A stretch of DNA of 64,000 nucleotides, taken from contig JAKDUK010000005.1 of the NCBI GenBank assembly GCA_030457765.1, positions 12,484 to 76,483 of the forward strand. Direction: 5' to 3'. Within the stretch, counting starts at the first letter, position 1; each line of letters starts with the position of its first letter. Below are positions 4,570-37,106 of this stretch, one piece after another. The position numbers and the translations under genes are program-made. This DNA comes from Marinobacter sp. GTDB lineage: Bacteria; Pseudomonadota; Gammaproteobacteria; Pseudomonadales; Oleiphilaceae. The notes beneath the pieces are model-generated. The model was not told the origin of the DNA and ran no database searches. It saw nothing but the letters and a program-made list of their open reading frames with translations.

Positions 4570-4662
4570 CCCACGCCAAGGGTTTTAGAAAGTTGCACAA
4601 CCATTAGCGTGGCCCTAGGCTACGTTAAAAACCCAACCAAGCCAGTCATGGAATGAAATCCT

Positions 4663-5430
4663 ATGTATGATCCAAAGCACTTCACACTCAAAGACCAGGT
4701 TGCTGTTGTTACGGGCGCAGGCGCAGGTATCGGCCGAGCCATTGCAGAAACTTTCGCGGCGGCCGGTGCAGCGGTTATGGTCAGCGACCTTGACGCCGAA
4801 ACGGCCAACACCGTTGCCAGAGTCATCGAAGCGCAAGGTGGCAAGGCAGCCGGAATCGCCTGCGATGTCACCAAGGAAGAAGACCTTGTCGCGCTGGTGA
4901 ACCAAACCGCAGAGACCTTCGGCAAACTGACCATTGTTGTCAGTAATGCCGGCGGCGGTGGACCCCAGCCTTTCGACATGCCCATGGACAACTTTCGCCG
5001 CGCCTACGATCTGAACGTATTCTCGCTGTTCCGCCTGGCCCAGCTAGCGGTGCCCGAAATGGAGAAAGCCGGGGGTGGTGCAATCCTGGCCATCACATCC
5101 ATGTCTGCCGAGAACAAGAACAAGCGTATGGCCTCTTACGGTTCTTCAAAGGCCGCGACCAGCCACCTCGTTCGCAACATCGCCTTCGATCTGGGCCCCA
5201 AAGGCATTCGCGTAAACGGCATAGCCCCCGGCGCCACACGCACCGACGCGCTGAAATCCGTGTTGAATGAGGACATCGAGAAAAAGATGCTGGAACACAC
5301 CCCCATTAACCGGTTAGGCGAACCTCAAGACATGGCCAATGCTGCCCTGTTTTTGTGCTCACCCGCTGCTGGTTGGGTCGACGGGCAGATTTTGACGGTG
5401 TCTGGTGGCGGCGTTCAGGAACTGGACTGA
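4663..5430 (+). CDS. hdhA: 7-alpha-hydroxysteroid dehydrogenase (SDR family)
   Basis: TGAGAGIG, 'NAGGGGPQPFDMPM..FRRAY.LNVFS', catalytic YGSSK and C-terminus 'GQILTVSGGGVQELD' closely match E. coli HdhA as I recall it; 255 aa. Confidence 0.85.
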   Translation: MYDPKHFTLKDQVAVVTGAGAGIGRAIAETFAAAGAAVMVSDLDAETANTVARVIEAQGGKAAGIACDVTKEEDLVALVNQTAETFGKLTIVVSNAGGGGPQPFDMPMDNFRRAYDLNVFSLFRLAQLAVPEMEKAGGGAILAITSMSAENKNKRMASYGSSKAATSHLVRNIAFDLGPKGIRVNGIAPGATRTDALKSVLNEDIEKKMLEHTPINRLGEPQDMANAALFLCSPAAGWVDGQILTVSGGGVQELD

Positions 5431-5502
5431 ACACCAGCAATATCAATAGCAACCATGCGGTGCCGGGTTCGGCGGCTTAGCCGGCCTTGCGCCGGGTGGT
5501 GC

Positions 5503-5991
5503 TCACTCTGCCTTTCGGGGTTTCAACGCCTTGTAACGCTCCTCTAACTCAGCACGAATCTCACGGCGTTGCTGGCCGTTCATGAAGCGCCTTATCTCGT
5601 CATCTGTACGCGGCTCAAGTTTGGGTACTTTGATGGCCGCCCCACCTTCGTCCACGGCCACCATGGTAAAGAAGCAACTATTGGTGTGCCTGACAAGCTT
5701 GTCACTGATGTTTTCTGTAATCACTTTAATACCCACCTCCATAGAGGTGTTTCCGGTGTAGTTCACACTGGCCAGAAATGTGACCAACTCCCCCACATGG
5801 ATAGGCTGCTTGAAGGTCACCTGGTCAACCGACAGGGTAACAACGTAGTTACCCGCATAACGGCTGGCACAGGCATAGGCCACTTCATCAAGATATTTAA
5901 GCAAGGTGCCACCGTGCACATTGCCAGAAAAGTTGGCCTTGTCCGGTGTCATTAACACCGTCATGGTGAGTGTTGTAGATCCGAGTGTCAT
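5503..5991 (-). CDS. Acyl-CoA thioesterase (hotdog fold, YciA-like)
   Basis: Motifs 'ANFSGNVHGGTLLKYLDEVA' and 'VNYTGNTSMEVG'. Likely ATG at 5991 after GAGAG. Confidence 0.88.
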   Translation of the reverse strand: MTLGSTTLTMTVLMTPDKANFSGNVHGGTLLKYLDEVAYACASRYAGNYVVTLSVDQVTFKQPIHVGELVTFLASVNYTGNTSMEVGIKVITENISDKLVRHTNSCFFTMVAVDEGGAAIKVPKLEPRTDDEIRRFMNGQQRREIRAELEERYKALKPRKAE

Positions 5992-6128
5992 AGTGCTCTC
6001 TTGGTTAGCGAAATATCTGAACAAACCCCCAGAGTCGATGATAGCGCAGCCACCGTCAACTGCGCCTCTAATGCAGTGCAAATTGCTTAACCAGAACTGT
6101 GTGGTACATGCTTACTATTTAGCTGGTT

Positions 6129-6156
6129 AGGTGGCCGACTCGTTTACCGGCCACCT
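6129..6156. terminator. Hairpin downstream of the P1B-ATPase (possible terminator)
   Basis: Perfect 9-bp inverted repeat AGGTGGCCG-N10-CGGCCACCT; no clear U-tract. Confidence 0.4.
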
Positions 6157-6175
6157 TCTCAATCCAACAGCTGTA

Positions 6176-8125: not shown

Positions 8126-8187
8126 GATTATTCACCTCATGATGAAACGCCTGAGCGGGCTACAAACCTGCCCAGACGTTAGAGAGC

Positions 8188-8403
8188 TCAGAACGCGCTA
8201 ACGCGCGCCTCATAACCAACCTCGCGTACCGCCGCGCGCAGGCGCTCGGCCCCAACCTGCTCTGCATCGTGCTCCACTTCGATGCGCCCGGTGTTGAAGT
8301 GCACTTTGGCAGAGGCTACGCCTTCAAGATGGTTCAGTGCGTTCTCAATCTTGGGAACGCAGGAGGGGCAGTTCAGTTCGTCGCTTCGCAGTAGGGTTTT
8401 CAT
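8188..8403 (-). CDS. HMA-domain metallochaperone (CopZ-like)
   Basis: 71 aa with 'LNCPSCVPKIE' (CxxC) and 'VGY' at the C-terminus; AGGAG SD. Confidence 0.9.
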   Translation of the reverse strand: MKTLLRSDELNCPSCVPKIENALNHLEGVASAKVHFNTGRIEVEHDAEQVGAERLRAAVREVGYEARVSAF

Positions 8404-8463
8404 CTCTTATCTCCTGTCTCATTGTTTCGACAGGTTTAGAGTGAATGATAAGCGGGGTTGGTT

Positions 8464-8481
8464 ACATGAGCCGGAACATGT
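8464..8481. promoter_or_regulatory. Candidate Crp/Fnr-family operator upstream of the chaperone-ATPase pair
   Basis: ACATGAGCCGGAACATGT is 14/18 palindromic with a TGA-N6-(T/A)CA geometry, centred ~70 nt upstream of ATG 8403. Confidence 0.35.
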
Positions 8482-8562
8482 TGCTCCACAAAAGGGTAAC
8501 TAAATACACAATGCGGCCGAAAAGTCGGTGTGCGGTTCGATTAGGGGGTTCAATTAGACGGC

Positions 8563-9330
8563 TCAGTTCGTGGGTTCGGCTTCGTTGGCCAGGCGGGCTA
8601 AATTGGTGCGGTTACGTAAGCGTATCCATTGCCGGCCAGTTTCAATATCACCGCTTCGGCGCAAGCCTGAAATAACGCGGCTCACGGTTTCGGCAGTCGA
8701 GCCCACCATGGCAGCCAAGTCTTGTTGTGAGAGCGGCGACTGAATCAAAATGCCGTCGTTTCCATGATCGGCCTCGCCCAGCCGGTCTGCAAGACGCAAA
8801 AGCACCAGGGCAATCCGGGCTTCCACCGGTAAGGTGCTGATCTCCCGAATGGTCGTATGAGCTGCCTCAAGGTCGCGGGCTACTGTGTCGAGCACGGTTA
8901 GCGCCATCTCAGGATATGTTCGCAGTAAGTGCCGAAAATCAGCGGGGGTAATTGCAAGTGCGCAGCAGGTTGTTTGAGCAAGTGCGCTTTGCGGGTACCG
9001 ACGCTGACCAAGCACGGCCAGACCACCAAACAGGCCCCCTTGGCTCAACAGGTCGAGTACAACTTCTTCGCCCGAGACACTATGCTGGAGCAATTTCACC
9101 TTGCCATGAGCAACCAGAAAGAGAGCTTCCGCCAGCTCACTCTCATGGTAAATCCTGGCGCCGGCCGGATAATCAAAGGCACGAAAGTGACGATTCACAT
9201 CACTCAACGCCTGTGCCGATAGCCCCTTAAAATAAGGAACAGCACTCAGAATTCGGGCCCGCTCTTCTATCGAACAGTGGCCAGGCGCTACAGCCTCGTC
9301 TCTCAGCGGCGTCGTGCGTTTTCGGCTCAC
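8563..9330 (-). CDS. Crp/Fnr-family regulator, Flp-like
   Basis: cNMP-type beta-roll and HTH 'QQDLAAMVGSTAETVSR'. The only Cys residues are C19 (in 'HCS') and C122/C123. GTG 9330 follows GAGAGG. Confidence 0.9.
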   Translation of the reverse strand: MSRKRTTPLRDEAVAPGHCSIEERARILSAVPYFKGLSAQALSDVNRHFRAFDYPAGARIYHESELAEALFLVAHGKVKLLQHSVSGEEVVLDLLSQGGLFGGLAVLGQRRYPQSALAQTTCCALAITPADFRHLLRTYPEMALTVLDTVARDLEAAHTTIREISTLPVEARIALVLLRLADRLGEADHGNDGILIQSPLSQQDLAAMVGSTAETVSRVISGLRRSGDIETGRQWIRLRNRTNLARLANEAEPTN

Positions 9331-9340
9331 AGCATACCTC

Positions 9341-9892
9341 TCATGAAAACGGCGACGGCGCCGCCTTAAACTCCGCATAAAGCTCTGGGTAGTCTTCTCG
9401 TAGCCGCGATAAGTTTGCTTGAGCCCCGTCTGGCAACATCTCCAGCAAAGCTTTCTGCTGCGCATCGGTTAGATGCTCACGAAGGAATGGAAACAGCTCT
9501 TCGCGCTCAGCGTGCAGGTAGGCGAGATGGGCATCGAGATAGGTTTTCAAATCTTCAATGAAGCGCTCCATGGGCACTACCGCATCCAGCAGGATCATGT
9601 CTATGGTCTCGGAAAGCTCATTCAGTCGCTTACGCAAGGCTTGATAGTCCTCAGCCAGCCTGTGACTGAGCGCTTCGGCTTTGGGTTCCCTGGCCAGCAG
9701 ATGCTCAGTGTAAAGGCGCTCCAACGGCATAATAAAGCCGTCCATGTACTCCAGAATGTAATCCACAACCTCACGCATCAGGTGAAAATCCGGGCGCTCG
9801 CCCTGCTCCAGTGTGCCATGTCGAAGCATAAGTATGTGCAGCAGCCGCGCCATATTGGCGTGGTCGCGACGTAATTGGTTAAGGGTAGCCAT
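9341..9892 (-). CDS. Hemerythrin-like helical protein with degenerate metal ligands
   Basis: 'LRRDHANM', 'REVVDY', 'DMILLDAVVP' and 'EREELFP' match the hemerythrin-domain pattern, but the His ligands are replaced; AGGAGG SD. Confidence 0.7.
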   Translation of the reverse strand: MATLNQLRRDHANMARLLHILMLRHGTLEQGERPDFHLMREVVDYILEYMDGFIMPLERLYTEHLLAREPKAEALSHRLAEDYQALRKRLNELSETIDMILLDAVVPMERFIEDLKTYLDAHLAYLHAEREELFPFLREHLTDAQQKALLEMLPDGAQANLSRLREDYPELYAEFKAAPSPFS

Positions 9893-9954
9893 GATAAAGC
9901 CTCCTTTGCTGATAACCCCATACTGGATCGTTCGTTAGTGTAATACCAGACCTG

Positions 9955-10311
9955 TCAGGCCCCTGGCAATGCCGCCGTAACCATCACTTCTACCTTCCAC
10001 TTGGGTTCCGCCAGTGCTGCTTCAACGCAGGCACGAACCGGCGGACGACCCGGCGTTACCCAAGCGTCCCAGGCTGCATTCATCTCGCTGAATTCAGCCA
10101 TATCTGTGACCCAGATAGTGGCGGCCAGTAGTTGGGATTTGTCAGTGCCAGCCTTGACCAGCAAAGCATCAACCGCCGCCAACGCTTGCTCTGTTTGGGC
10201 TCGCATCGATGCGTTGCCATCCTGTGCAACTTGACCGGCCAGGTACACCGTCTGGTTGTGAATAACCGCCTGGCTCATCCGTTGATTTGCGTCGACATGC
10301 TTCATTGTCAT
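9955..10311 (-). CDS. RidA/YjgF-family protein (YoaB/Rid2-like)
   Basis: Motifs 'RMSQAVIHNQTVYLAGQV', 'MNAAWDAW', 'PVRACV' and 'KVEVMVTA'. Confidence 0.9.
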   Translation of the reverse strand: MTMKHVDANQRMSQAVIHNQTVYLAGQVAQDGNASMRAQTEQALAAVDALLVKAGTDKSQLLAATIWVTDMAEFSEMNAAWDAWVTPGRPPVRACVEAALAEPKWKVEVMVTAALPGA

Positions 10312-10417
10312 GATAATTTACTCGCTCTCAAGGATAGTAAATACGTGCTACATGGAGTCACTCTTAGGGTAGCTTAGTACCGCTTGCTCATTTAGATAGC
10401 TTGGCCTATGTTGAAAT

Positions 10418-10464
10418 GACTACGCCAAAGTAGAGTGTATGAGTTTGTGGTCTTTAACGTAGTC
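10418..10464. promoter_or_regulatory. Long-spacer inverted repeat in the divergent rid/TRAP intergenic region
   Basis: GACTACGCCAAAG-N21-CTTTAACGTAGTC; arms are 11/13 complementary. Confidence 0.4.
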
Positions 10465-10513
10465 TTTACTGGCGTTAGATAATAAATACAAAACAATAAG
10501 AGACCCTGCGCAT

Positions 10514-11596
10514 ATGATTATCAAGACGATTTCACGAATTGCCATACTTGCCGCATTGCCGCTGGCCATGGCTGCTGTACCGGCACAAGCCAATGAAATG
10601 GCGATTGCCACCATTCTGCCCGAAAACATGAGCAACAACTCGGTCTACCCCGCGTTGGTGCGCTTCAAGGATTTGGTCGAATCACGCACCGACGGCGAGG
10701 TAACGGTTAATATTTTTGGCAACAGCCAGTTGGGGTCAGAGGTAGACACCGCCAAAGAAGTTCAGGGCGGTCGCACCCTCCAATCCACTATTATCACTAC
10801 CGGCGCCATGTCGTCCTACTATGACGATTACCAGCTGATGACAGCTCCCTTCGTGTTCGATAACTGGCGCCAGGCCTGGGCTTTCCTCGATGGTGAGTGG
10901 TTTGCCGATTTGATGTCCGGCACGGTTGAAGAAACGAATATGCGTTATCTGGGCACCTTCGATGATGGCGGCGGTTTCGTGGCTTTCACCAACAACGAAC
11001 ACCTCATAAAAACAGTGGAAGACCTTGAAGGGCTTAATATCCGCACCGAGGAGAATCCCGGGCACGTAGCAATCATGAAGGCGCTGGGTGCATCTGCCAC
11101 ACCGCTACCCTGGGGTGAAGTGATCACCGCACTTGAAACCGGCCTGGCTGACGGTCAGTTCAACGCAACGGTGCTCAATACAACCTTTAACTTCCACGAA
11201 GTAACCGATTACACCACCCTGACCGGTCACGTATACAACAGCGCCGCCTGGCTGATCAGCGAAGACTGGTACCAGAACCTGACCGATGAACAGCAGGAAG
11301 TCATTGTAACCTCAGCCCGTGAAGCCATCGCCATAGGGCACGGCATGTCTGCGGCACTGGCCACAGCTGGCTGGCAGGAATCCTGCGAGACCTTCAAGGA
11401 TTGCTACCTCATGCCTGCCGAAGAGCGCGAGCGCATGGCCGACATTGCGCGCCCTGCCTGGAAAAAGTGGATCGTGAATGACTTTGGTATCGACGCTAAA
11501 AAGGTCGATGAGTTTCTGGCAGAGGTAAAGCGTGTCGGTGAAGAAGTGAAAGAATCGGACATGGCCAAATACGGCTCAGACAAAACAGGTAAGTAA
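10514..11596 (+). CDS. dctP: TRAP transporter substrate-binding protein (DctP family)
   Basis: Signal peptide ('AQA'), 'NSQLGSE', conserved Arg in 'GLNIRT' and 'ALETGLADGQ'. Confidence 0.9.
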   Translation: MIIKTISRIAILAALPLAMAAVPAQANEMAIATILPENMSNNSVYPALVRFKDLVESRTDGEVTVNIFGNSQLGSEVDTAKEVQGGRTLQSTIITTGAMSSYYDDYQLMTAPFVFDNWRQAWAFLDGEWFADLMSGTVEETNMRYLGTFDDGGGFVAFTNNEHLIKTVEDLEGLNIRTEENPGHVAIMKALGASATPLPWGEVITALETGLADGQFNATVLNTTFNFHEVTDYTTLTGHVYNSAAWLISEDWYQNLTDEQQEVIVTSAREAIAIGHGMSAALATAGWQESCETFKDCYLMPAEERERMADIARPAWKKWIVNDFGIDAKKVDEFLAEVKRVGEEVKESDMAKYGSDKTGK

Positions 11597-11622
11597 CGAC
11601 TAACATCGCTCGCTCACCCATC

Positions 11623-11648
11623 GGCCGGCTGGGCACTGCTAGCCGGCT
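11623..11648 (+). terminator. Intergenic hairpin between dctP and dctQ (mRNA stabiliser or partial terminator)
   Basis: GGCCGGCTGG-GCACTG-CTAGCCGGCT followed by TATGTTGCTTTT. Confidence 0.5.
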
Positions 11649-11671
11649 TATGTTGCTTTTAAGGTACATTG

Positions 11672-12217
11672 ATGCAACTTCTTCAGCCTCTGCGCCAATT
11701 GAGTGACCGGGTTAACCAAGCGGCGATTGTGGCCTGTGTGACCTGTGTACTTATTATGCTGGGCATCTCGTTCACGGCCTTCATCTATAAACTGGTTACC
11801 GGCGGCAGCCTGAGCTGGACCTACTCATTAGCAAGGCTTTTCCTACCCTGGATCGGCTTTCTTTCCATGACTATCTCATTACGCTACGGCGAGCACGTGG
11901 CCATGACGCTGTTGGTTCGCAGCCTGCCCAGGGCGCTACTGACGTTTGCCGCGGCTCTGTGTCTTATTATGATCGCAGTGTTTGGAGTGCTGTTGCTGTG
12001 GTATGGCTGGAGCTACTTCACAAGTGCAAACCAGATTTACATGGTTTCTGACCAGATCCAGATTTCTGCCAAGTTTACCGCCATTGTGGTGCCTATCAGC
12101 GGCGCTATCATTTTGTTGCACCTGGTACAGGGCTTCGCCCTACTCGAGCACTTCATCGATGACGAAGCGCTAATTGATGAATATATCGGAACCCAGGATA
12201 TGGAGAAGCGCACATGA
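11672..12217 (+). CDS. dctQ: TRAP transporter small permease (DctQ)
   Basis: Four TM segments with 'GEHVAM'; lies between dctP and dctM; ATGA overlap with dctM. Confidence 0.88.
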   Translation: MQLLQPLRQLSDRVNQAAIVACVTCVLIMLGISFTAFIYKLVTGGSLSWTYSLARLFLPWIGFLSMTISLRYGEHVAMTLLVRSLPRALLTFAAALCLIMIAVFGVLLLWYGWSYFTSANQIYMVSDQIQISAKFTAIVVPISGAIILLHLVQGFALLEHFIDDEALIDEYIGTQDMEKRT

Positions 12218-13488
12218 TCCCCGCCATTGTTGTATTTGTGGTGCTTCTGCTTATCGGCATGCCGGTAGCCGTTGTTATGGCTCTTTCTGGCCTGGCCGGT
12301 GGCTTTTCCATGGGTGGCGAGTACATGCTCAGCATTATTGCTGACCGCATGTTTGCCGGTGTTTCGGGCTTTATGCTCATTGCCGTGCCTTATTTTATTT
12401 TCACCGCCGAGTTGATGAACCAGGGCGGCCTGACCCAAAAACTGATCGACTTCAACAATGCGCTTTTTGGCCGAGTGCGCGGAGCACTGTCGCACGTTAA
12501 TATTTCTGTATCTGTGTTCTTTGCCGGGCTAACTGGCGCGGCCATCACCGATACCGTGGCGATCGGTAAAATCATGATCCCCGAGATGAAAAAACAAGGT
12601 TATGACGCCGACTACGCCGCGGCCATCACTGCCTGCTCATCAATCATCGGGCCGATCATTCCACCCAGCGTCGTGATGGTGATTTATGCCACGCTGCTGC
12701 GTGATATTTCAGTTATCGACCTGTTTGCCGGCGGCATCATTCCCGGCCTATTGATGGCATTGGCGCTGCTTGCAGTGAGCTTTTTTCTGGCCTGGAAGCG
12801 AGGCTACCCCAAACAGGCGCCGACGCCACTCAAGGTAGCGGGGATGGCTTTTTTAATGGCCTTGCCGGCGATGTTCGTGCCGCTGATCATTCTTGGCGGG
12901 ATTTTATCAGGGCTGACAACCATCACCGAGGCTTCAGGATTTGCCGCCGTTTATGCCATCGTGATTGGCTTGGTGTTCTATCGTAACCTTACCTGGAAAA
13001 AAATCTGGCACGCACTGGTGGTAACCGTGCGCTTCTCCGGCGTGGTGTTTTTCCTGCTGGCAACCTCGGCGGTGCTTGGCTGGTTTGTGACCCGCTCTGG
13101 CATCGCCCGGGACGCGGCTGAACTAATCACCACCTTCAGCGATTCGATGTTTGTCCAGCTACTGCTGGTGTGCGCGCTATTGTTGCTGGTTGGAACGGTA
13201 ATGGATGTGCTGCCGGCGCTTGTTGTTGTCGCGCCGGTACTGGTGCCGGCAATGGTTCAGCTGGGCGTAGACCCGCTGCACTTTGCAATTCTGATGATTG
13301 TGGTGCTCAATATCGCCAACGTTACACCACCCGTGGGGATGACGCTCATGACAGCGGCCCGAATCGCCAACGTGCCGTTCGAGCGGGCAATTATTGCCTC
13401 GCTGCCGTTTTACTTCGCCTTTGCGGCGGTGATTCTGCTGCTGGTGGCGTTTCCCATACTGTCAACCTGGGTACCCTCGCTGCTCTAG
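12214..13488 (+). CDS. dctM: TRAP transporter large permease (DctM)
   Basis: Motifs 'IIGPIIPPS', 'LFAGGIIPG' and 'TPPVG'; 424 aa, hydrophobic. Confidence 0.92.
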   Translation: MIPAIVVFVVLLLIGMPVAVVMALSGLAGGFSMGGEYMLSIIADRMFAGVSGFMLIAVPYFIFTAELMNQGGLTQKLIDFNNALFGRVRGALSHVNISVSVFFAGLTGAAITDTVAIGKIMIPEMKKQGYDADYAAAITACSSIIGPIIPPSVVMVIYATLLRDISVIDLFAGGIIPGLLMALALLAVSFFLAWKRGYPKQAPTPLKVAGMAFLMALPAMFVPLIILGGILSGLTTITEASGFAAVYAIVIGLVFYRNLTWKKIWHALVVTVRFSGVVFFLLATSAVLGWFVTRSGIARDAAELITTFSDSMFVQLLLVCALLLLVGTVMDVLPALVVVAPVLVPAMVQLGVDPLHFAILMIVVLNIANVTPPVGMTLMTAARIANVPFERAIIASLPFYFAFAAVILLLVAFPILSTWVPSLL

Positions 13489-14367
13489 CGAGGGGCTCTT
13501 GCTTGGCAAGCGCAAACGCCGCTGCGACAACACCGCTTGAATTACGCCCGATACAATAATCAAAGCACTTCCAGACATCTGCATGGCATTCAAGCTTTGG
13601 CTGAACAACCCCCACCCTAGCGCAACAACCACGATAGGCTCCAGATAAGCCAGAGTGCCAAACGTAGCAGCCGGGAGAGCCTTCAGCGCCACCACCGCAA
13701 ACATAATCGCCAGGAACCCCGGAACAACACCTGCCGCCACAAGCCAGCCCCACTGCCCTGCATCAATGCTGTCGCCTTGCTGCAACATAAAAGGCAACAT
13801 GCACAGGGCGCCCGCCGCCATTTGAAAGCCACTGCGGGTCAGCACATGTACACGCTCGTGAATAAGTCGATTGGTGAGAATAAAGGCCGCATAACACAAC
13901 ATCCCACACAGCGCGTAAAACAGCCCAATTGCTTCTTCTCCTCGCCCTGAGAGATTAAAATTGAATTCCATCATCATCGCAAAGCCAAACAGCGCCATGG
14001 CTATCAAGGCAGTGCTGGCTCCCGACAATCGTTCCCCCATAAAAAAGTGCGCAATCGTGGCTGCAGTCACCGGTGCCAAATACAGCAGCATGACTGCGTT
14101 CGCCATACTGGTATAGCTCATGGCCATCACATAAAAAACCACAAAGCCTGAGAGAAACGCGCCTGTTACCAAAACCTTCATGCCCGGCCAGGTGAACACC
14201 TTCTCTTTCTGGCCTGTCACTAAAAGGAAACAACCCATTAAAACGGCGCCGATAAACAAACGGTAAAACGTAACTGTTTCGGCGCTCACGCCGGCGTAAA
14301 TAGAAATCGCGCCAATGGTGCCCATGAAAACGGCAGAAAGAACGGCCGCCAATATGTATGAGTTCAT
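13462..14367 (-). CDS. DMT/EamA-family transporter
   Basis: Two EamA repeats ('ANAVMLLYLAPV', 'LAYLEPIV'). Overlaps the dctM 3' end by 27 nt. Confidence 0.85.
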   Translation of the reverse strand: MNSYILAAVLSAVFMGTIGAISIYAGVSAETVTFYRLFIGAVLMGCFLLVTGQKEKVFTWPGMKVLVTGAFLSGFVVFYVMAMSYTSMANAVMLLYLAPVTAATIAHFFMGERLSGASTALIAMALFGFAMMMEFNFNLSGRGEEAIGLFYALCGMLCYAAFILTNRLIHERVHVLTRSGFQMAAGALCMLPFMLQQGDSIDAGQWGWLVAAGVVPGFLAIMFAVVALKALPAATFGTLAYLEPIVVVALGWGLFSQSLNAMQMSGSALIIVSGVIQAVLSQRRLRLPSKSPSLEQRGYPG

Positions 14368-14501: not shown

Positions 14502-16394
14502 CTATGACCAAAGGCCAAACCGTTTTATTTTTCGATAGAGCGTTGCTCGCGTAATGCCCAACTCCCGGGATGCAGCACTTACATTGTTATCGTGCTTTTC
14601 GAGCACCGCACACACTGCCTTACGCTCTGCATCAGCCAACAGCATTCCCGGTATTGCGTTTGGCGCTGAGACTGAAGGCCGATTCACTTTGATTTCATCA
14701 GGCAAGTGATCTACCTCTATAGTACCCAGGTCAGAGAGTGCTTGCCCAAGATTCAACGCCTGCTTTAGCTCTCTAATATTACCTTTCCAATCGTGGCTGT
14801 TTAACAGTTTTCGGGCTTCAGGCGTCAGTGTCGAGGCCCCCTCCGGGCGTGCAATCAAGGCCAACAAATGATCGATCATGGAATCCAGCTCTTCACGCTC
14901 CCGAAGAGCTGGCAGAGCTACCCTAAGGCCATTGACTCTATAATAGAGGTCGTCGCGAAAACCTCCTTTCTCCATCAGCACCTCCAGATCCCGGTGCGTC
15001 GCGCAAATTAAAGAAAAAGAAATGGGGCGTGGTCTTTCTTCCCCAAGCCTGGTCACTGTGCGCTCCTGCAGTACACGCAACAAACGCGCCTGAAACTCCG
15101 TTGGCATATCGCCTATTTCGTCCAAAAAAAGCGTACCCCCACACGCCTCTTCAAACTTTCCCTTCGCGCCCCCACGGCGAGCACCGGTGAATGCCCCATC
15201 GGCATAGCCAAACAACTCTGACTCGATTAGCCCGGCGGGAATAGCCGAGCAATTTACAGCGACAAAAGCGCCTTTTGGAGAAGGCCCTTCAACATGTAGC
15301 CAGCGAGCCAGAACCTCCTTGCCTGTCCCGGTTTCACCGTTAATCAGAACAGGCACTCCATGCTTGAAGGCGCGCCGCGCCTTCTCGAAAAGGGGCTTCA
15401 ATGAAGCGTCCACAAAGAAGGCAGGGAAAGGTGACGGCTGTTTTGTTTCGGGCCTAACGTTAGCCGAAAAAGGTTTTCTACGCTGGGTCTCCGTCTGAAG
15501 ATACAGCCTTGATCCATTATAACATTCCACCTCAATGGGGCGGTGTTGCGACCGCCATATTTCGTCAGGGTGGCATGAGAACAAGTCTCTAAAGCACACA
15601 CCACCCTGACTCTGTTCAAGAAAATCAAGGCCTAACATTTGACGGGCTGAAGGATTTGCTCCCAGTACCTCGCCATCCTCACCAAAGTGTATCAAGCCAC
15701 GCATGGGTGAATCCGAAAGCTCAGGACGATAATGAAGAGCCAAAACCAGTGCACCAGACAAATCCCCAACCATTCGGTTTTCTACGGCCCGAGTTGTCAG
15801 CGCAACTGACTCAAGAATCCCAACTGGACGGCCATCGTAGGGCTTAGAGGCGTTCAAAGCTCCCACCAACTTCCCTGCAGGATCAAAAATAGGTACGGCA
15901 ACGCAAGAAAGGTCACGCAATTCATGCAAAAAATGCTCATTGCCACACACAACTGAGGGCCGGTGTTCTATTAATGCACATCCGGGACCGTTAGTGCCCA
16001 CAACCCCCTCTGAAAGGTCAATACCCGAATTCAGGGCAACACCCAGTACTTTGTACGAGGGACTGTCATTGCCAAAATACTTGATGCTACGGCCTTCTCT
16101 TTCCAGACACGCTAACACCCAGCCAGCGGAACCCAATGAGCGGAATAGCCGGCGCATTTCTGGTTCAGCATAGCTCATGAGCTGTTGATGTCGGTCGCGG
16201 ATATGGGGCAACTCTTTGCAGGGCGTGGCGTTTAGTAGGACCTGCTCAACCGGAGAAAGGCCATGCTCTCTGGACCGTAACCAGGATCGCATAACCTCAT
16301 CTCGTACCCATTGTGATGGCACTTCCCGCCCTTCATCAAAGAGCTCACGCGCCTGTTGAATCCGGATATCTGGATCGGAATGGTGTGTCTGCAT
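14502..16394 (-). CDS. Sigma54-dependent activator, AcoR type (GAF-AAA+-Fis HTH)
   Basis: GAF 'SWLRS...VGTNG...EHF'; AAA+ 'GETGTGKE', 'ELFGY..GAFTGA', 'FLDEIGD' and 'FRDDLYYR'; HTH 'NVSAASRELGITRATLYRK'. ATG 16394 follows GGAG. Confidence 0.93.
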   Translation of the reverse strand: MQTHHSDPDIRIQQARELFDEGREVPSQWVRDEVMRSWLRSREHGLSPVEQVLLNATPCKELPHIRDRHQQLMSYAEPEMRRLFRSLGSAGWVLACLEREGRSIKYFGNDSPSYKVLGVALNSGIDLSEGVVGTNGPGCALIEHRPSVVCGNEHFLHELRDLSCVAVPIFDPAGKLVGALNASKPYDGRPVGILESVALTTRAVENRMVGDLSGALVLALHYRPELSDSPMRGLIHFGEDGEVLGANPSARQMLGLDFLEQSQGGVCFRDLFSCHPDEIWRSQHRPIEVECYNGSRLYLQTETQRRKPFSANVRPETKQPSPFPAFFVDASLKPLFEKARRAFKHGVPVLINGETGTGKEVLARWLHVEGPSPKGAFVAVNCSAIPAGLIESELFGYADGAFTGARRGGAKGKFEEACGGTLFLDEIGDMPTEFQARLLRVLQERTVTRLGEERPRPISFSLICATHRDLEVLMEKGGFRDDLYYRVNGLRVALPALREREELDSMIDHLLALIARPEGASTLTPEARKLLNSHDWKGNIRELKQALNLGQALSDLGTIEVDHLPDEIKVNRPSVSAPNAIPGMLLADAERKAVCAVLEKHDNNVSAASRELGITRATLYRKIKRFGLWS

Positions 16395-16501
16395 GACCGT
16401 CTCCATCAAACTGTATTGTTATTGTCCACCTGGCCGATTCGCATGTACTAAAACGACCCAGTTATTTTTCAAAAATAGCAGCCAACCCTTACAAGGCCCC
16501 G

Positions 16502-16514
16502 CAATAAGTTGATT
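16502..16514 (-). promoter_or_regulatory. IHF-binding site
   Basis: The reverse strand reads AATCAACTTATTG, matching WATCAANNNNTTR, ~30 nt upstream of the -24 element. Confidence 0.7.
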
Positions 16515-16542
16515 TTACTGAATATTTAAAGCTCAAAAGTTC

Positions 16543-16558
16543 TGGCACGCTCGCTGCA
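16543..16558 (+). promoter_or_regulatory. Sigma54 (-24/-12) promoter of the alcohol-oxidation operon
   Basis: TGGCAC-GCTCG-CTGCA versus consensus TGGCAC-N5-TTGCW; divergent from a sigma54 activator. Confidence 0.85.
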
Positions 16559-16604
16559 TATGCAATAAATGCGATACCAACAAAACCAATAAGGAATCTG
16601 CATT

Positions 16605-17528
16605 ATGTCGCTTGTATCAACCTTTGAAAAAAGAATACTGCCCTTCTCCAAACAGCGGTATGTAAGCATTGCTTCAGCTGCTTTTACCACACTCTTGTTG
16701 TCTTCAGGCTCTGCGCAGGCTGTTGACATGGATGCGGGAGATTACACCGCTCTCCCTCCAGGCACTAATCTAGCTATGGGCTACTACCAGTTTGCTACAC
16801 GGGACGCCCTCTATTCCGACGGAAACAAAGCTCCTACCAATGCAGGTCTTGACTCCCATATAGGAATTTTGCGCGGAGTTCACTTCACTGAAATCGGCGG
16901 CTTTACCGTAGATCCTCAGTTCCTTCTACCAATAGGTAAGCTCGAAGGCAAGGACGATACATCTAGCCTCGGCGACGCCAGTGGCATAGGCGATTTAACT
17001 CTAGCTGCTACAGTGTGGCTACTGAATGAACCTGAAAGTAACACCTACTTCGGCATTACCCCTTTCGTCTACGCCCCTACGGGAAGTTATGATCAAAAGG
17101 ACGCGCTGAATTTGGGGGAAAACCGCTGGAGGTACGCACTCCAGGCAGGCTATATCACCGGGCTTACGCCCAAAATTTCTCTGGACTTGGCCGGGGACGT
17201 CACATTTTATGGAGAAAATGACAAGTTCGGAGCCGCCAAAGCGACTTTGAAACAGGACCCGTCTTATCAGTTGCAAAGTTTTTTTCGTTACCACATGACC
17301 TCTCAATGGGACCTTCGAGCTGGCCTTTCACACACTCTTGGCGGCGAGACTTCGGTTGACGGTGTAGACCAAGGTGACCGGATGTCATACACAAAAATGA
17401 CACTGGGAACCGCCTGGTTCGCAACCCCAAGTTTGCAGTTGCTGGCTAACTATGGAAGAGACCTCTCTGTAAAAAACGGGTTTAAAGAAAAACATCGAAT
17501 CAACCTTCGTGTTCTCAAAGCCTTCTAA
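16605..17528 (+). CDS. QbdB/SphA-like (COG4313, MetA-pathway) outer-membrane beta-barrel
   Basis: Signal peptide, 'DAGDYTALPPGT', 'PTGSYD...LNLGENRW' and C-terminal Phe; directly upstream of a quinohemoprotein ADH as in qbdBA. Confidence 0.8.
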   Translation: MSLVSTFEKRILPFSKQRYVSIASAAFTTLLLSSGSAQAVDMDAGDYTALPPGTNLAMGYYQFATRDALYSDGNKAPTNAGLDSHIGILRGVHFTEIGGFTVDPQFLLPIGKLEGKDDTSSLGDASGIGDLTLAATVWLLNEPESNTYFGITPFVYAPTGSYDQKDALNLGENRWRYALQAGYITGLTPKISLDLAGDVTFYGENDKFGAAKATLKQDPSYQLQSFFRYHMTSQWDLRAGLSHTLGGETSVDGVDQGDRMSYTKMTLGTAWFATPSLQLLANYGRDLSVKNGFKEKHRINLRVLKAF

Positions 17529-17568
17529 TACGGCTTAAAACAGTAATAAAAACGAAAAGGACATTGAG

Positions 17569-19689
17569 ATGACACTAATAAAGAGCTATTCCGGATTTCG
17601 GCTAAAGCACCAGGCACTCCACGTCGCACTAATTTCATGTTTGGGGCTTGCGGGCGGTGATGCAATCGCGGCCAATCGCATTGATCAGGTCAATGAAAGC
17701 TATATAAAAGAAAACGCCAAGACGGGTAAAGACTGGCCAGCCCACGGCTTTGACTACGCAGAAACCCGTTTCAGCCCTCTCTCGCAAATTACAGATTCCA
17801 ACGTCAATAAGCTGGGGTTAGCCTGGTCCTATGATCTGAAATCAAGCCGTGGCATTGAGGCTACGCCTCTGATTGTAGACGGGGTGATGTATGTAACCGC
17901 GTCGTGGAGTGTCGTACACGCACTTGATGCGACAACCGGCGAAAACCTTTGGACTTTCGACCCTGAAGTACCTCGGGAAAAGGGCTATGAAGCCTGCTGC
18001 GATGTGGTTAACCGTGGTGTTGCCCTGTATGAAGGCAAGGTCTACGTTGCCGCACTTGATGGCCGGCTGGTCGCCATTGATGCAAAAACCGGGCAAAAAG
18101 CCTGGGAAAGGAACACGCTAATTGACAACGAAATCGGCTACACATTAACCGGTGCGCCTCGCGTCTTTAAAGGTAAAGTGATCATCGGAAACGGCGGCGC
18201 AGAGCGTGGCGTAAGGGGTTATATCACGGCCTACGATGCAAAAACCGGAGAACAGAAATGGCGCTGGTATACCGTACCAGGGGATCCTGGCAAACCATTC
18301 GAAAACGAGGCCATGGCCAAAGCGGCCGAGACCTGGGACCCCAGCGGTAAATACTGGGAAAGCGGTGGCGGCGGCACCGTGTGGAACTCTATGGTTTTTG
18401 ATCCCGACCTGAACCTTATGTATATCGGCACGGGCAACGGAGCCCCATGGTCCCATAAAAAACGCAGTCCAAAGGGCGGAGACAACCTGTACGTAGCCTC
18501 TATTGTTGCGCTTAACCCTGATACCGGAGAGTACGTTTGGCACTACCAAGAGACGCCGGGGGATAACTGGGACTACACCTCAGCCCAAGACATGATTCTC
18601 AAGGATCTCATGATAGATGGGGAGCTGCGAAAAATTATTATGCACGCTCCTAAAAACGGTTTCTTTTTTGTCGTTGACCGCACCAACGGCGAATTCATCT
18701 CCGCTGACAACTTTGTCGATGTGAACTGGGCGGAGGGCTACGATAGCAACGGGCGCCCAATCGAAGTGCCTGCTGCACGCTCGGGAGACAAGCCATTTGA
18801 TGCCATTCCAGGCCCCTTCGGCGGTCATAACTGGCACTCGATGTCCTTCAACTCCGAAACAGGGCTCGCGTATTTCCCTTCTCAGAACATTCCCATAACG
18901 CTATCAGAAGACCCTACCTGGACAAGTATAGAAAGTAATGAGCCCGGCCAGCCAATGAGCGGTATTGGCTGGAATACCGCAATGAGAATCAACGAAGCCC
19001 CGCCCTCCGGTAAACCATTCGGACGACTAACGGCCTGGGATCCAATCAAACAACAGGAGGCCTGGCGTTACGAGCATGCCTCACCCTGGAACGGCGGTAC
19101 GCTTTCTACTGCTGGCAACCTAGTGTTCCAAGGAACTGCAGATGCACGGTTAATGGCATTTAACGCACAAACGGGCAAACCGTTATGGGAATCCCCCATG
19201 GGCACCGGAGTCATTGCCGCTCCGGTCACCTATGAGGTTGATGGTACTCAATATGTCTCAATTGCAGCTGGCTGGGGAGGAGTATACGGGCAGGCCCAAA
19301 GAGGCTCTGACCTGAAGACCTCCGGCACTGTTTATACATTTGCGCTGAACGGTAACGCCGAATTGCCTGAGTTCACGAAATATCAGTTGGGGTCATTAAT
19401 TTCTGGTGTTAAGTACAACCCAGATTTCGTTGAGGAAGGCACTGGCATTTACGTTAGCAACTGCGTGTTTTGCCATGGCGTCCCTGGGGTAGATAAAGGC
19501 GGCAATATCCCGAACCTGGGCTACAGCGATAGCGCTGTTATCGAAAACCTTAGCTCCTTTGTATTTAATGGCCCATTTGTCGGTAACGGTATGCCTGATT
19601 TTACCGGCAAGTTAAGTGAGACAGATGTCGAAAAAATAAAGGCCTTTATCCAGGGTACAGCTGACGCAATTCGCCCCAAAAGCCAGTAA
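17569..19689 (+). CDS. Type II quinohemoprotein alcohol dehydrogenase (PQQ plus heme c)
   Basis: PQQ beta-propeller motifs, vicinal Cys 'ACCDVVNRG', active site 'DNWDYTS', C-terminal CVFCH with 'GMPDF' axial Met, and a signal peptide. Confidence 0.93.
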   Translation: MTLIKSYSGFRLKHQALHVALISCLGLAGGDAIAANRIDQVNESYIKENAKTGKDWPAHGFDYAETRFSPLSQITDSNVNKLGLAWSYDLKSSRGIEATPLIVDGVMYVTASWSVVHALDATTGENLWTFDPEVPREKGYEACCDVVNRGVALYEGKVYVAALDGRLVAIDAKTGQKAWERNTLIDNEIGYTLTGAPRVFKGKVIIGNGGAERGVRGYITAYDAKTGEQKWRWYTVPGDPGKPFENEAMAKAAETWDPSGKYWESGGGGTVWNSMVFDPDLNLMYIGTGNGAPWSHKKRSPKGGDNLYVASIVALNPDTGEYVWHYQETPGDNWDYTSAQDMILKDLMIDGELRKIIMHAPKNGFFFVVDRTNGEFISADNFVDVNWAEGYDSNGRPIEVPAARSGDKPFDAIPGPFGGHNWHSMSFNSETGLAYFPSQNIPITLSEDPTWTSIESNEPGQPMSGIGWNTAMRINEAPPSGKPFGRLTAWDPIKQQEAWRYEHASPWNGGTLSTAGNLVFQGTADARLMAFNAQTGKPLWESPMGTGVIAAPVTYEVDGTQYVSIAAGWGGVYGQAQRGSDLKTSGTVYTFALNGNAELPEFTKYQLGSLISGVKYNPDFVEEGTGIYVSNCVFCHGVPGVDKGGNIPNLGYSDSAVIENLSSFVFNGPFVGNGMPDFTGKLSETDVEKIKAFIQGTADAIRPKSQ

Positions 19690-19704
19690 ATGAAGGAAAT
19701 AACA

Positions 19705-21219
19705 ATGAACAAAATGACAAACGAAGCAGCGAATATAGAACAGAAGACCCAAGCGTTTCTCGACCGTCAAAGCCATCGCATGCTGATTGGCGGGGAATGG
19801 GTTGATGCAGCGAAAGACAAGCGTATGCAGGTTGTAAACCCAGCCGAAGAAGCGATCATTGGAACTATTCCGTCTGCAAATTCGGACGACGTAAACAAAG
19901 CTGTTGATTGTGCCAGAAACGCTCTGGAACAAAGTGCCTGGAGTCGGATGAGACCTTCCACTCGGCAGAATTTGCTCCTGAAACTTGCTGACCTGATTGA
20001 GCGGGATGCCCGAATAATCGCGGAGTTAGAGGCTATCGACAATGGTAAATCTGCCGCTGTTGCTCAGGCTGTTGATATAAGCTTAGGCTTGGAGTTCTTC
20101 CGCTATATGGCAGGGTGGGCAACCAAAATCGAAGGGTCTACTCTGGATGTGTCCATGCCTTTCGCACCGCCCGAAGCTGACTTTTTTGCATACACCCGAC
20201 GTGAGCCTATCGGTGTTGTAGCTGCAATCATACCGTGGAACTTTCCATTTCTTATGGCCTGCTGGAAGTTGGCACCGGCGCTGGCAGCGGGCTGTACGGT
20301 GGTTCTAAAACCTGCAGAGCAAACATCTCTTTCTGCACTATATTTAGGCGAGCTGATTGAGGAGGCCGGTTTCCCCAGCGGCGTTGTGAATATTATTACA
20401 GGTGATGGTCAGAGTACGGGCTCGACTTTGATAGCACACCCTGACATAAACAAAATCAGCTTTACAGGTTCAACACAGGTGGGCCAGCTCATCGGCCGCG
20501 CAGCTATGGATAACATGGCCCGTGTAACACTGGAGCTGGGCGGCAAGTCGCCAATGATTGTCCTGGAAGATTGTGATCCCGAGAAAGCAGCGCAAGGTGC
20601 GGCCGTCGCAATCTTTTTCAATCATGGACAAACTTGCAGCGCAGGCTCTCGGCTGTACGTGCACCGAAGCATCTTTGATACTGTCGTCAACCGACTCGCG
20701 GAGTTGGCTGAGGCCATACCCCTGGGGCCAGGCCTAGATCCGGCCGCACAAATGGGGCCCCTTGTATCCCAGACACAGCTGGACAGAGTCTGCCGCTATA
20801 TTGAAATAGGCTGCCAGGAAGGTGCACGCTTGGTTACCGGAGGGGAGAGGGCTGACCGCAAGGGGTATTACGTCAAGCCCACCATCTTCACATGCGAAGA
20901 TGACAGCCTGGTTATTGCCAGGGAGGAGATTTTTGGCCCGGTAATGGTAGCAATTCCCTTTGATGATGTTGACGATGTTGTGGATCGTGCCAATGACAGT
21001 CGCTATGGCCTGGCAGCCAGTATCTGGTCAAACGACCTCTCTCAAGTGCAACGCTTAATACCGAGACTAAAAGCGGGCACTGTATGGGTAAATGGACACA
21101 ACATGCTTGACGCAAACGTGCCATTCGGAGGCTACAAACTATCAGGCGTTGGCCGCGATATGGGCAAGCAATCCCTTGATTCGTATCTTGAAACCAAATC
21201 GGTTTTCATGGCCCTCTAG
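19705..21219 (+). CDS. NAD-dependent aldehyde dehydrogenase, phenylacetaldehyde dehydrogenase (FeaB/StyD)-like
   Basis: PWNFP, 'FTGST', 'LELGGKSP', catalytic 'GQTCSAG' and 'EEIFGPV'; N-terminal 'AFLDRQ' resembles FeaB. ATG 19705 follows AAGGA. Confidence 0.85.
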   Translation: MNKMTNEAANIEQKTQAFLDRQSHRMLIGGEWVDAAKDKRMQVVNPAEEAIIGTIPSANSDDVNKAVDCARNALEQSAWSRMRPSTRQNLLLKLADLIERDARIIAELEAIDNGKSAAVAQAVDISLGLEFFRYMAGWATKIEGSTLDVSMPFAPPEADFFAYTRREPIGVVAAIIPWNFPFLMACWKLAPALAAGCTVVLKPAEQTSLSALYLGELIEEAGFPSGVVNIITGDGQSTGSTLIAHPDINKISFTGSTQVGQLIGRAAMDNMARVTLELGGKSPMIVLEDCDPEKAAQGAAVAIFFNHGQTCSAGSRLYVHRSIFDTVVNRLAELAEAIPLGPGLDPAAQMGPLVSQTQLDRVCRYIEIGCQEGARLVTGGERADRKGYYVKPTIFTCEDDSLVIAREEIFGPVMVAIPFDDVDDVVDRANDSRYGLAASIWSNDLSQVQRLIPRLKAGTVWVNGHNMLDANVPFGGYKLSGVGRDMGKQSLDSYLETKSVFMAL

Positions 21220-21224
21220 GAATG

Positions 21225-21268
21225 AATGCTACCCCTCCCCGGCATTCGCAGCCGGAGGGGGTAGCATT
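21225..21268. terminator. Strong intergenic hairpin between the ALDH and the TonB receptor
   Basis: AATGCTACCCCTCCCCGGC-ATTCGCA-GCCGGAGGGGGTAGCATT (near-perfect ~18-bp stem); lacks a poly-U tail. Confidence 0.6.
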
Positions 21269-21318
21269 AATAGCCGAACGCTTCAGCTATCCCTAGCTTT
21301 AATACCACCCATCCCAAG

Positions 21319-23376
21319 ATGAGAGCTATGACTAACTACAAATCTACATTTCTCTTTTTGAGTGGACTAGTAACCCTCCCATTCACAATGACTGCCCATG
21401 GGCAACCTGCCGCCGACATTATGGTGACAGCGCCAGTGATGGAGCGTGACCTTTACGAAACGCCCGCTGCCATGTCGGTCGTTCGGCAGAGCTCCATTCA
21501 GGAAGGTCAGTCCCGATTAAAGTTGAATGAGAGCCTTGGCCAAGTTCCGGGCATTTTTTTGCAGAATCAGGAGAACTACGCCCAGGGTGAACGCATCGCG
21601 ATACGTGGGTTTGGGGCACGAGCGCCATTTGGGGTTCGCGGCATTACGGTTATGGTTGACGGCATTCCATACACCCTCCCAGACGGCCAGGCGCAACTGG
21701 ATGCAATCGATTTGGATACCGCTCAACGCATCGAAGTGATTCGTGGCCCCGCGTCGGTCTTATATGGTAATGCGGCGGGCGGCGTGATCAGTGTGACAAC
21801 AGCCGATGGGCGCTCTCAGCCCGATCAGACATCGGTTCGTATGACCGGTGGCAGTAATGATTTCGGCAAACTTTCGATAACCAACAGCGGCAGCAATGGG
21901 CCCTGGTCGCACAGCGTCAGTGGTTCCGCCCTCAACTATGAGGGCTATCGTGATCAAGCCAAGGTCGAAAAATACCTGCTGAACACCAAGCTGCGCCGGG
22001 AGCTAGGTAACGATCGCTCCGTGACCGCCATGTTAAACCTGCTGCAAAACCCACGGTCGGAAGATCCGGGGGCTCTCACAATTGAACAAGTTAAAGCCGA
22101 CAAATCCCAAGCTGGTAAATTTACCGAGAAGTTTAATACCGGGCAAACCGTCGACCAACAAGTGCTTGGCCTGCAATATCAGGACCTTTCTGCAGGTCCG
22201 GGTGAGCTTCGCGTAAAAACCTTCTACATGCGCCGGAACTTTGAACAACAACTTCCTTATATTGGTCCAAGCCGCATCGATTACAACCGCAATTATTTTG
22301 GAGTAAATGCGGATTATCGTCAGGCCCTGCAAGTTGCGGGATTTCCGTTTCGTTATGTTGCGGGGATCGAGGCACGGGATCAACAAGATGACCGCATACG
22401 CACAAAAATGAACCCAAACGGAAATTTAGGAGGGCTCAAGGAGGATGAACGTCAATCCGCCACTGTTCTCAGTACTTTTGCTCAAGGTGACTTGAACCTT
22501 AGTGAACAATTAACTTTTTCTCTTGGGGCTCGCTTCGACCGAGTTCGCATGAAAGTTAGTGACGACTTCCTTTCAAATGGCAATCAAAGCGGAAGTAACA
22601 GCTTTAAAGAATGGAGCGGCTCTGCGGGCTTGAACTATCGCTACCTTCCAGCTCACCAAGCGTATGCGAACCTTAGCACCGCCTTCGAAACACCAACCTT
22701 CACGGAGTTTGCCAACCCGTTGGGAGTAGGTGGACTAAATCCGGAAACTCAGGCACAAAAATCACTTAATCATGAGTTGGGGGTGCGTGGGGAATTCAAC
22801 AACGGCATCGATTATGACCTCACATTGTTCTGGGTTGATGTTCGAGATGAGCTTATCGCCTATAACCTCCCTGGCCGGGGTGATCAGGACTTCTACCGCA
22901 ACGCCGGAGACACTACACGTAAGGGGTTTGAAGCAGCCGTTGGCTGGCTGATTACCTCAAGCTGGCGTATTGACAGTGCATTAACGTTAGCCAGCTATGA
23001 ACTTGAAACCTACCGCACGGATAGCAACAACTATGATGGGAACAGGTTACCCGGCCTGCCAGAGCATACCTGGAGCAACCAGCTGAAGTGGCACGGCCTG
23101 GGCGGCACCTTTGCAACGTTGGAAAGCCGTTATGTTGGCGATATGGTTGCCGACGATGCCAATGAGGTGAAAGTTGACGACTATTGGCTGTTAAACCTGC
23201 GCGGCGGCGACACGCTGTATGCGGGGCAAAAGTTGCTTCTTAAAGGCTTTGCTGGCATTGATAACCTGACTAACAGGAATTATTTTGCCAACGTACGTAC
23301 TAACGCCACCTACGGTAAATATTTTGAGCCAGCCTCCGGGCGCACCTGGTACGCAGGACTCGAGGTTGTTTTCTGA
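21319..23376 (+). CDS. pqqU: TonB-dependent receptor, PqqU/YncD family (putative PQQ uptake)
   Basis: Plug 'VPGIFLQNQENYAQGERIAIRGFGARAPFGVRGI..VDGIP.TLPDGQ', 'FETPT' and 'YFEPASGRTWY' resemble E. coli YncD/PqqU as recalled; C-terminal Phe. Confidence 0.75.
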   Translation: MRAMTNYKSTFLFLSGLVTLPFTMTAHGQPAADIMVTAPVMERDLYETPAAMSVVRQSSIQEGQSRLKLNESLGQVPGIFLQNQENYAQGERIAIRGFGARAPFGVRGITVMVDGIPYTLPDGQAQLDAIDLDTAQRIEVIRGPASVLYGNAAGGVISVTTADGRSQPDQTSVRMTGGSNDFGKLSITNSGSNGPWSHSVSGSALNYEGYRDQAKVEKYLLNTKLRRELGNDRSVTAMLNLLQNPRSEDPGALTIEQVKADKSQAGKFTEKFNTGQTVDQQVLGLQYQDLSAGPGELRVKTFYMRRNFEQQLPYIGPSRIDYNRNYFGVNADYRQALQVAGFPFRYVAGIEARDQQDDRIRTKMNPNGNLGGLKEDERQSATVLSTFAQGDLNLSEQLTFSLGARFDRVRMKVSDDFLSNGNQSGSNSFKEWSGSAGLNYRYLPAHQAYANLSTAFETPTFTEFANPLGVGGLNPETQAQKSLNHELGVRGEFNNGIDYDLTLFWVDVRDELIAYNLPGRGDQDFYRNAGDTTRKGFEAAVGWLITSSWRIDSALTLASYELETYRTDSNNYDGNRLPGLPEHTWSNQLKWHGLGGTFATLESRYVGDMVADDANEVKVDDYWLLNLRGGDTLYAGQKLLLKGFAGIDNLTNRNYFANVRTNATYGKYFEPASGRTWYAGLEVVF

Positions 23377-35567: not shown

Positions 35568-37106
<1,539 letters not shown>

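Follow-up and report, generated by a model that had tools for sequence, protein, structure and literature searches.

A PqqU-family receptor gene at the end of a putative sigma-54 alcohol-oxidation operon in a Marinobacter genome that encodes PQQ synthesis

Why does an alcohol-oxidation cassette end in the gene of a likely importer of pyrroloquinoline quinone (PQQ), and does the organism that carries it depend on PQQ made by others? The question is raised by a stretch of 64,000 nt (the window) from contig C20 of the Marinobacter sp. assembly GCA_030457765.1 (JAKDUK010000005.1, positions 12,484-76,483, forward), in which the genes for an activator, an outer-membrane channel, an alcohol dehydrogenase (ADH), an aldehyde dehydrogenase (ALDH) and a TonB-dependent receptor (TBDR1) lie together; all five open reading frames of the original prediction were found in place. 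The assembly is a metagenome-assembled genome (MAG; 3.17 Mb, 147 contigs, 86% complete, 0.4% contamination), and by the records of its close relatives it belongs to Marinobacter. We consider it probable that the cassette is a sigma-54 operon by which a Marinobacter with its own PQQ synthesis oxidizes an amphipathic alcohol in the periplasm; the PqqU-type importer would most likely be a supplement, because the genome has pqqABCDE, or would serve recapture.

TBDR1 is, by its sequence, a member of the PqqU family. Its best family match is PqqU (NF041535, 389.9 bits), the next family scoring 185 bits, and it aligns over its full length with Escherichia coli PqqU/YncD (6V81, 309 bits; 9C4O, 307 bits; about 31% identity), whereas the other solved TonB-dependent receptors match the plug only (at most 57 bits). 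The signature of PqqU as defined by Munder et al. 2025, an aromatic residue at position 99 together with R304 and R365 (PMC12124388), is complete in TBDR1 (F, R, and R, respectively) and kept in all 59 aligned relatives (MAFFT alignment to E. coli PqqU, sequence from NC_000913). The match to 6V81 and the signature bear out the PqqU/YncD-type receptor, co-directional with the cassette, that had been predicted, and PQQ is its likely ligand. The true start of the gene is probably 21328, since the ATG of the longest reading frame (21319) reads ACG in the relative G018; the ATG at 21328 is conserved.

Synthesis of PQQ is encoded elsewhere in the same genome. On the window's contig a profile search gave no match for pqqB, pqqC, or pqqE, so that the original statement that no pqq gene occurs in the 64 kb holds for these three. 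The search of the whole genome, proposed at the outset and bearing on one half of the refutation then named, the other half being PQQ-independent growth, found all three above their family cut-offs on contig C3 only, within a complete operon; the order on C3 is exaC (3' end), pqqA, pqqB, pqqC, pqqD, pqqE, an S9 peptidase, ercA, and an ErcS-type kinase (ercS). The product of pqqA scores 45.6 bits against TIGR02107 and has the E-x-x-x-Y motif; PqqB, C, D, and E exceed their cut-offs over the full length of the profiles, without internal stops. C3 is 87% identical to, and collinear over 8.7 kb with, the relative G035. The window's housekeeping stretch has its nearest relative in G035 as well (80%), and on this ground we take C3 to be a real Marinobacter contig that fits this genome. 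With an intact pqqABCDE on a contig syntenic with G035, scavenging or cross-feeding at the level of the organism, as first proposed, is not borne out.

Nor does the receptor appear to replace PQQ synthesis in other Marinobacter. Of 36 congeners (the relatives referred to here by number are G007, G012, G018, G027, and G035), 28 yielded a pqqC: 15 of 19 that have a PqqU-type receptor and 13 of 17 that lack one. As pqqC is equally common in both groups, the receptor is not a substitute for synthesis in the genus; of the six genomes with the receptor clade of the window, five have pqqC.

A Pseudomonas-like ethanol-oxidation system was also observed, split over the contig ends of C3 and C18; C18 carries a truncated ExaA-type ADH of the Ca type (D-Y-S), a pentapeptide protein, a LuxR-type regulator, and a PQQ-associated CXXCW protein.

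The cassette itself has the two marks of a sigma-54 operon, an activator with a sigma-54 interaction domain and an upstream -24 GG/-12 GC motif. No other site in the window fits the -24/-12 motif without a mismatch, and the GG-N10-GC core is the same in the aligned cassettes of the window, G018, and G035; orthologs of the activator occupy the same position in G018 and G035 (73-80% identity). The label AcoR-like, given earlier to the activator, is not confirmed, as a domain search of residues 1-330 returned only PAS_8 at E 0.005, below the cut-off. A second sigma-54 site at 35789-35804 (TGGCACGCTCACTGCC, a near-match) was rejected; it lies inside a minus-strand open reading frame (35568-37052) and is probably due to chance. 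The block GTGTAYTAAAACGAYCCAG, located in 16410-16470, precedes the -24/-12 element by about 90-110 nt. All three cassettes have it in conserved form, together with the whole 5' leader; the block is a candidate binding site for the activator or for integration host factor.

The enzymes point to oxidation in two steps and two compartments. The ADH aligns over residues 31-704 with the quinohemoprotein ethanol dehydrogenase (QH-EDH) of Comamonas testosteroni (1KB0, 1088 bits) and also with ADH-IIB of Pseudomonas putida HK5 (1KV9, 703 bits); it has an eight-bladed propeller, a Cytochrome_CBB3 domain at residues 621-694, the vicinal cysteines Cys143-Cys144, and a heme site CVFCH at 632 (C632-x-x-C-H). 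In lanthanide-dependent enzymes of this kind the active-site motif reads D-Y-D, and in the Ca type the second residue after the catalytic Asp is not Asp; the motif of the window's enzyme, GDNWDYTS with D335-Y-T, is of the Ca type. The start codon of the ALDH follows directly on the stop codon of the ADH. The ALDH is related to the StyD/FeaB phenylacetaldehyde dehydrogenases, with unproven specificity: it scores 719.5 bits against StyD (NF045735), below the equivalog cut-off of 850 bits, and its nearest solved structures are 4O5H (648 bits, deposited as phenylacetaldehyde dehydrogenase) and 4QYJ (566 bits). Signal-peptide-like N-termini were found in the channel, the ADH, and the receptor and not in the ALDH; the ADH is predicted to be periplasmic, the ALDH cytoplasmic. 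The channel, from a family implicated in the uptake of amphipathic or hydrophobic compounds (PMC4493636), is the presumed entry route for an alcohol of that kind. Because the ALDH is close to phenylacetaldehyde dehydrogenases, the channel family takes amphipathic compounds, and PaaA and PaaK (paaA, paaK) are encoded in the genome, a medium-chain or aromatic alcohol is a possible substrate; 2-phenylethanol is an example, to which nothing in the cassette is specific.

Table 1 Features of the alcohol-oxidation cassette and its receptor gene, with positions in the window
Feature	Position	Strand	Basis and remarks
Sigma-54 enhancer-binding activator, 635 aa	14502..16409	-	Pfam Sigma54_activat (PF00158) 2.3e-60, AAA_lid_14, HTH_8; divergent from the operon
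Candidate sigma-54 -24/-12 promoter, TGGCAC-N5-CTGCA (TGGCACGCTCGCTGCA)	16543..16558	+	47 nt upstream of the ATG of the channel gene
COG4313 (PF13557) outer-membrane channel	16605..17528	+	PF13557 2e-41; 4RL8 (P. putida Pput2725) 230 bits, 2.1e-67; signal-like N-terminus
Type II quinohemoprotein ADH, PQQ propeller and C-terminal heme c	17569..19689	+	TIGR03075 667 bits (cut-off 480)
NAD(P)-dependent ALDH	19690..21219	+	Aldedh 2.8e-177; StyD best family
GC-rich hairpin without T-tract	21225..21268	+	ALDH-receptor spacer
PqqU-family TonB-dependent receptor TBDR1	21319..23376	+	Plug and TonB_dep_Rec_b-barrel (Pfam), signal peptide; likely start 21328

Whether the receptor belongs to the transcript of the cassette turns on the 100-bp gap behind the ALDH gene, which holds a strong hairpin. 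The minimum free energy of the 106-nt spacer is -39.9 kcal/mol (z -4.68), and none of 200 shuffled sequences folds as well. The hairpin is present in three genomes: G035 keeps it, with only about 25 nt from the hairpin to the receptor start, and in G018 the stem differs in sequence and pairs perfectly. No sigma-70-like promoter was detected in the spacer. A repeat of the repetitive extragenic palindromic type was considered and rejected, as the hairpin motif is unique in the window. The simplest reading of receptor expression, we infer, is that transcription from the sigma-54 promoter runs on into the receptor gene and is weakened by the hairpin; the receptor gene would then be co-transcribed with the cassette, and the hairpin is a candidate attenuator, processing site, or mRNA-stabilizing stem that sets the dose of the receptor.

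The unit recurs as a whole within the genus. All five genes, from activator to receptor, are also found in G018 and G035 (identities of 73-93% for activator, channel, ADH, and ALDH; 71-76% for the receptor), and the genes directly flanking the cassette differ among the three genomes. M. segnicrescens CGMCC 1.6489 has a sigma-54 activator, an ALDH, a quinohemoprotein ADH (67%), and a PqqU-type receptor in a different gene order (3952-11989); no pqqC was found in its genome, nor in that of G027 (100% complete; quinohemoprotein ADH 62%, receptor 52%), and both are candidate true PQQ scavengers.

Receptors of the same clade also stand beside other PQQ enzymes. A paralog in the window's genome (TBDR2, 78% identical to TBDR1; contig C46, 9353-11398, +) is convergent with, and 30 bp apart from, a gene for a membrane-bound PQQ glucose dehydrogenase (Gcd, of the glucose/quinate family; 11429-13765, -; TIGR03074, 1108 bits), a pair that is repeated in G007; in G035, G012, and Marinobacter sp. 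1-4A a receptor of the TBDR1 clade lies at the edge of an ExaA/ped-type cluster. A more distant clade of Marinobacter receptors (about 50% identity) lies among housekeeping genes (LrgB, SBF, prkA-DUF444-spoVR), away from any PQQ enzyme. In the receptor tree, which is without support values, the clade members are all 71-79% identical, and neither an origin of TBDR1 by duplication within the genome nor the order of events is resolved.

Two further observations concern the neighborhood of these receptors. In the close relative Marinobacter sp. Lab_640_Diesel_bin.10 (8308-13816) a PqqU-type receptor (79% to TBDR2) adjoins EamA, DusA, and Tal; the window carries the ADH cassette in full at this same chromosomal junction, a hint that insertions here are variable. 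In G012 a 705-aa protein (9206-11323, -), with Fer4_5 (4Fe-4S binding) as its sole Pfam match, sits between the PqqU-type receptor and the porin-FIST-kinase start of a ped/erc-type cluster.

Beyond the genus, 80 PqqU-type loci from named genomes were scored for PQQ dehydrogenases within 10 kb. An eight-bladed PQQ dehydrogenase lies within that distance in 13 and directly adjacent in 10: seven Halomonadaceae (receptor convergent with Gcd; pairs of lower identity than that of G007), M. segnicrescens, a Binatia MAG, and a gammaproteobacterial MAG. By a rough estimate, if a 4-Mb genome has some few such genes, chance would place one within 10 kb in only a few percent of loci; not all of the adjacent cases are phylogenetically independent. 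No pqq genes were found within 10 kb of the 10 adjacent loci. At the level of genomes, pqqC is present in Vreelandella sulfidaeris and was not found in Halovibrio variabilis, the Binatia MAG, or the gammaproteobacterial MAG; the pairing of enzyme and importer thus occurs both in producers and in apparent non-producers.

In the mechanism that we propose, the activator would switch on the -24/-12 promoter and the COG4313 channel would admit the substrate; the alcohol would be oxidized in the periplasm by the Ca/PQQ/heme-c quinohemoprotein dehydrogenase, and the aldehyde converted to the acid by the StyD-like ALDH in the cytoplasm. The PqqU-family transporter would bring external PQQ to the periplasm, where the apo-enzyme would be loaded. 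Made together with the enzyme that requires PQQ, though in smaller amounts owing to the spacer hairpin, the importer may both retrieve PQQ lost across the outer membrane and draw on PQQ of the community; the recapture role fits a cell that has its own synthesis. A wider proposal is put forward tentatively, as possible rather than probable: that PqqU-type importers are hard-wired to individual quinoprotein loci, import being switched on with the apo-enzyme, and form with them a self-sufficient module in producers and apparent non-producers alike. In the window's genome the two paralogs in question have diverged recently, stand at different PQQ enzymes, and in one case close the putatively substrate-inducible sigma-54 operon. 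The earlier idea of a cofactor-importing catabolic unit survives in part; the pairing of a PQQ enzyme with a PqqU-family importer stands (recurrent unit, Gcd-side paralog, other lineages), and the cross-fed organism falls with the pqqABCDE on C3.

Several points weigh against the sigma-54 operon with a supplementary importer. The spacer hairpin could terminate transcription and leave the receptor an independent gene. The genome is an incomplete MAG in 147 contigs, and its pqq operon lies on a separate 10-kb contig. TBDR1 scores far below the equivalog cut-off of NF041535 (390 against 1200 bits); in control genomes this model matched only the receptors of E. coli and Caulobacter, of which only one passed the cut-off. 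Two semi-conserved PQQ contacts, K274 and R536, are both Q in TBDR1; they are non-defining for PqqU (PMC12124388), position 274 being Q across the whole genus and position 536 R in TBDR2 and most relatives. The link of TBDR1 to PQQ is one of sequence and gene neighborhood. In P. aeruginosa, according to a published regulatory study, pqqU is constitutive and not regulated by carbon source. Last, in a class-level sample of 250 genomes 11 have enzymes like the quinohemoprotein ADH, distant homologs only (44-52% identity), and none of the 11 has an adjacent PqqU-type gene, so that the linkage of ADH and receptor is lineage-specific and not general.

Some of these points feed a different explanation, in which the receptor has nothing to do with the dehydrogenase and is either an independent, constitutive PqqU or an importer of a lanthanide, another metal chelate, or a siderophore. 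A terminating hairpin, the constitutive gene of P. aeruginosa, and the unconserved K274 and R536 would all suit it, as would the finding that lanthanide-importing receptors, too, have PqqU/6V81 as top match, without the PQQ-binding residues (bioRxiv 10.64898/2026.07.10.737718). TBDR1 has all of the PQQ-binding residues that those receptors are without, and the two ADHs examined belong to the Ca type (D-Y-T in the enzyme of the cassette, D-Y-S in the ExaA-type one on C18); a LutH-like lanthanide receptor was rejected on these grounds, no reference sequence of a lanthanide receptor having been compared directly. Regulation by iron was rejected likewise, as no Fur-box-like site was found upstream of the receptor, the best match (11/19 to the 19-bp Fur consensus) being at the window-wide background. 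The clade moreover adjoins three different PQQ-enzyme loci that have only PQQ in common, and the spacer of G035 is too short for a separate promoter. On balance we judge an unrelated receptor unlikely.

Two further explanations seem to us far less credible. That the organism cannot make PQQ, the cassette being an obligate scavenging unit dependent on cross-feeding, would agree with the lack of pqq matches in the window and with the closest solved homolog of the ADH, the C. testosteroni QH-EDH, on which the paper of Groen 1986, cited in PMC12997753, is by its title a description of the apoenzyme; against this stand the intact pqqABCDE with its S9 peptidase, the synteny of C3 with the nearest relative at 0.4% contamination, and the pqqC of five of the six Marinobacter genomes with this receptor clade, which make obligate scavenging most improbable here. 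It may hold in relatives, namely in M. segnicrescens and G027, where pqqC was not found. TonB-dependent receptors within catabolic operons often import the substrate, and TBDR1, as the last gene of the cassette, might take up a bulky or scarce alcohol, or export or handle a product; the cassette already has a dedicated COG4313 channel, the 78%-identical paralog stands beside a glucose dehydrogenase with an unrelated substrate, and the PQQ-contact signature is conserved, so that we give this explanation very little weight. The reading of an operon with an importer that supplements or recaptures PQQ is therefore preferred.

All components of the locus come from known families. TBDR1 is of the same transporter family as E. 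coli PqqU (6V81/9C4O), with aromatic-99, R304, and R365 kept, and differs from it by Q in place of K274 and R536 and by its setting, E. coli pqqU adjoining yncE and TBDR1 being the last gene of a sigma-54 alcohol cassette. PqqU in PQQ producers is already documented by P. aeruginosa PqqU (PA2289), and 23% of PqqU encoders are also producers (PMC12124388); TBDR1 likewise sits in a producer, whereas the two receptor copies of the window's genome each stand beside a different quinoprotein gene and pqqU of P. aeruginosa is constitutive. The ADH shares propeller, vicinal disulfide, D-Y-T, and C-terminal CxxCH heme domain with Comamonas QH-EDH (1KB0) and HK5 ADH-IIB (1KV9), and differs in that its host encodes PQQ synthesis. 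The layout of Pseudomonas exaABC-pqqABCDEH-ercAS/ped is present in the same genome on C3 and C18; the cassette differs from it in being under sigma-54 and an enhancer-binding protein rather than ErcS/ErbR-type two-component control, in having a quinohemoprotein where that system uses a type I ADH and a separate cytochrome, and in having its own channel and PQQ importer. The channel has the PF13557 barrel of the COG4313 channels (Pput2725, TcpY, SphA; 230 bits to Pput2725) and, unlike these, stands first in a PQQ-ADH operon.

In the small set of papers on PqqU that was consulted, we found no description of PqqU in a substrate-inducible catabolic operon, of paralogs allotted to separate quinoprotein loci, or of PQQ dehydrogenase genes as its repeated neighbors; the synteny test of Munder et al. 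was confined to the pqq operon (PMC12124388), and Hantke and Friz discussed only yncE as a neighbor of PqqU. The operon-embedded, quinoprotein-linked arrangement is thus apparently undescribed.

PQQ is increasingly seen as a shared good in microbial communities, and PqqU figures in published work chiefly as a means of scavenging. A PqqU in an inducible catabolic operon of a PQQ maker would, if true, mean uptake or recapture tuned to demand, which bears on the supply of a leaky cofactor to periplasmic oxidation in marine degraders of hydrocarbons and alcohols such as Marinobacter. That such receptor genes repeatedly adjoin quinoprotein genes can serve as a practical guide to which TonB-dependent receptors transport PQQ, and it points to isolates that may truly depend on PQQ, for example M. 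segnicrescens, in which no pqqC was found. The module of enzyme and importer, if it is one, would work in producers (the window's genome, G018, and G035) as well as in apparent non-producers (M. segnicrescens and Halovibrio variabilis), and would allow quinoprotein pathways to be transferred with no pqq operon.

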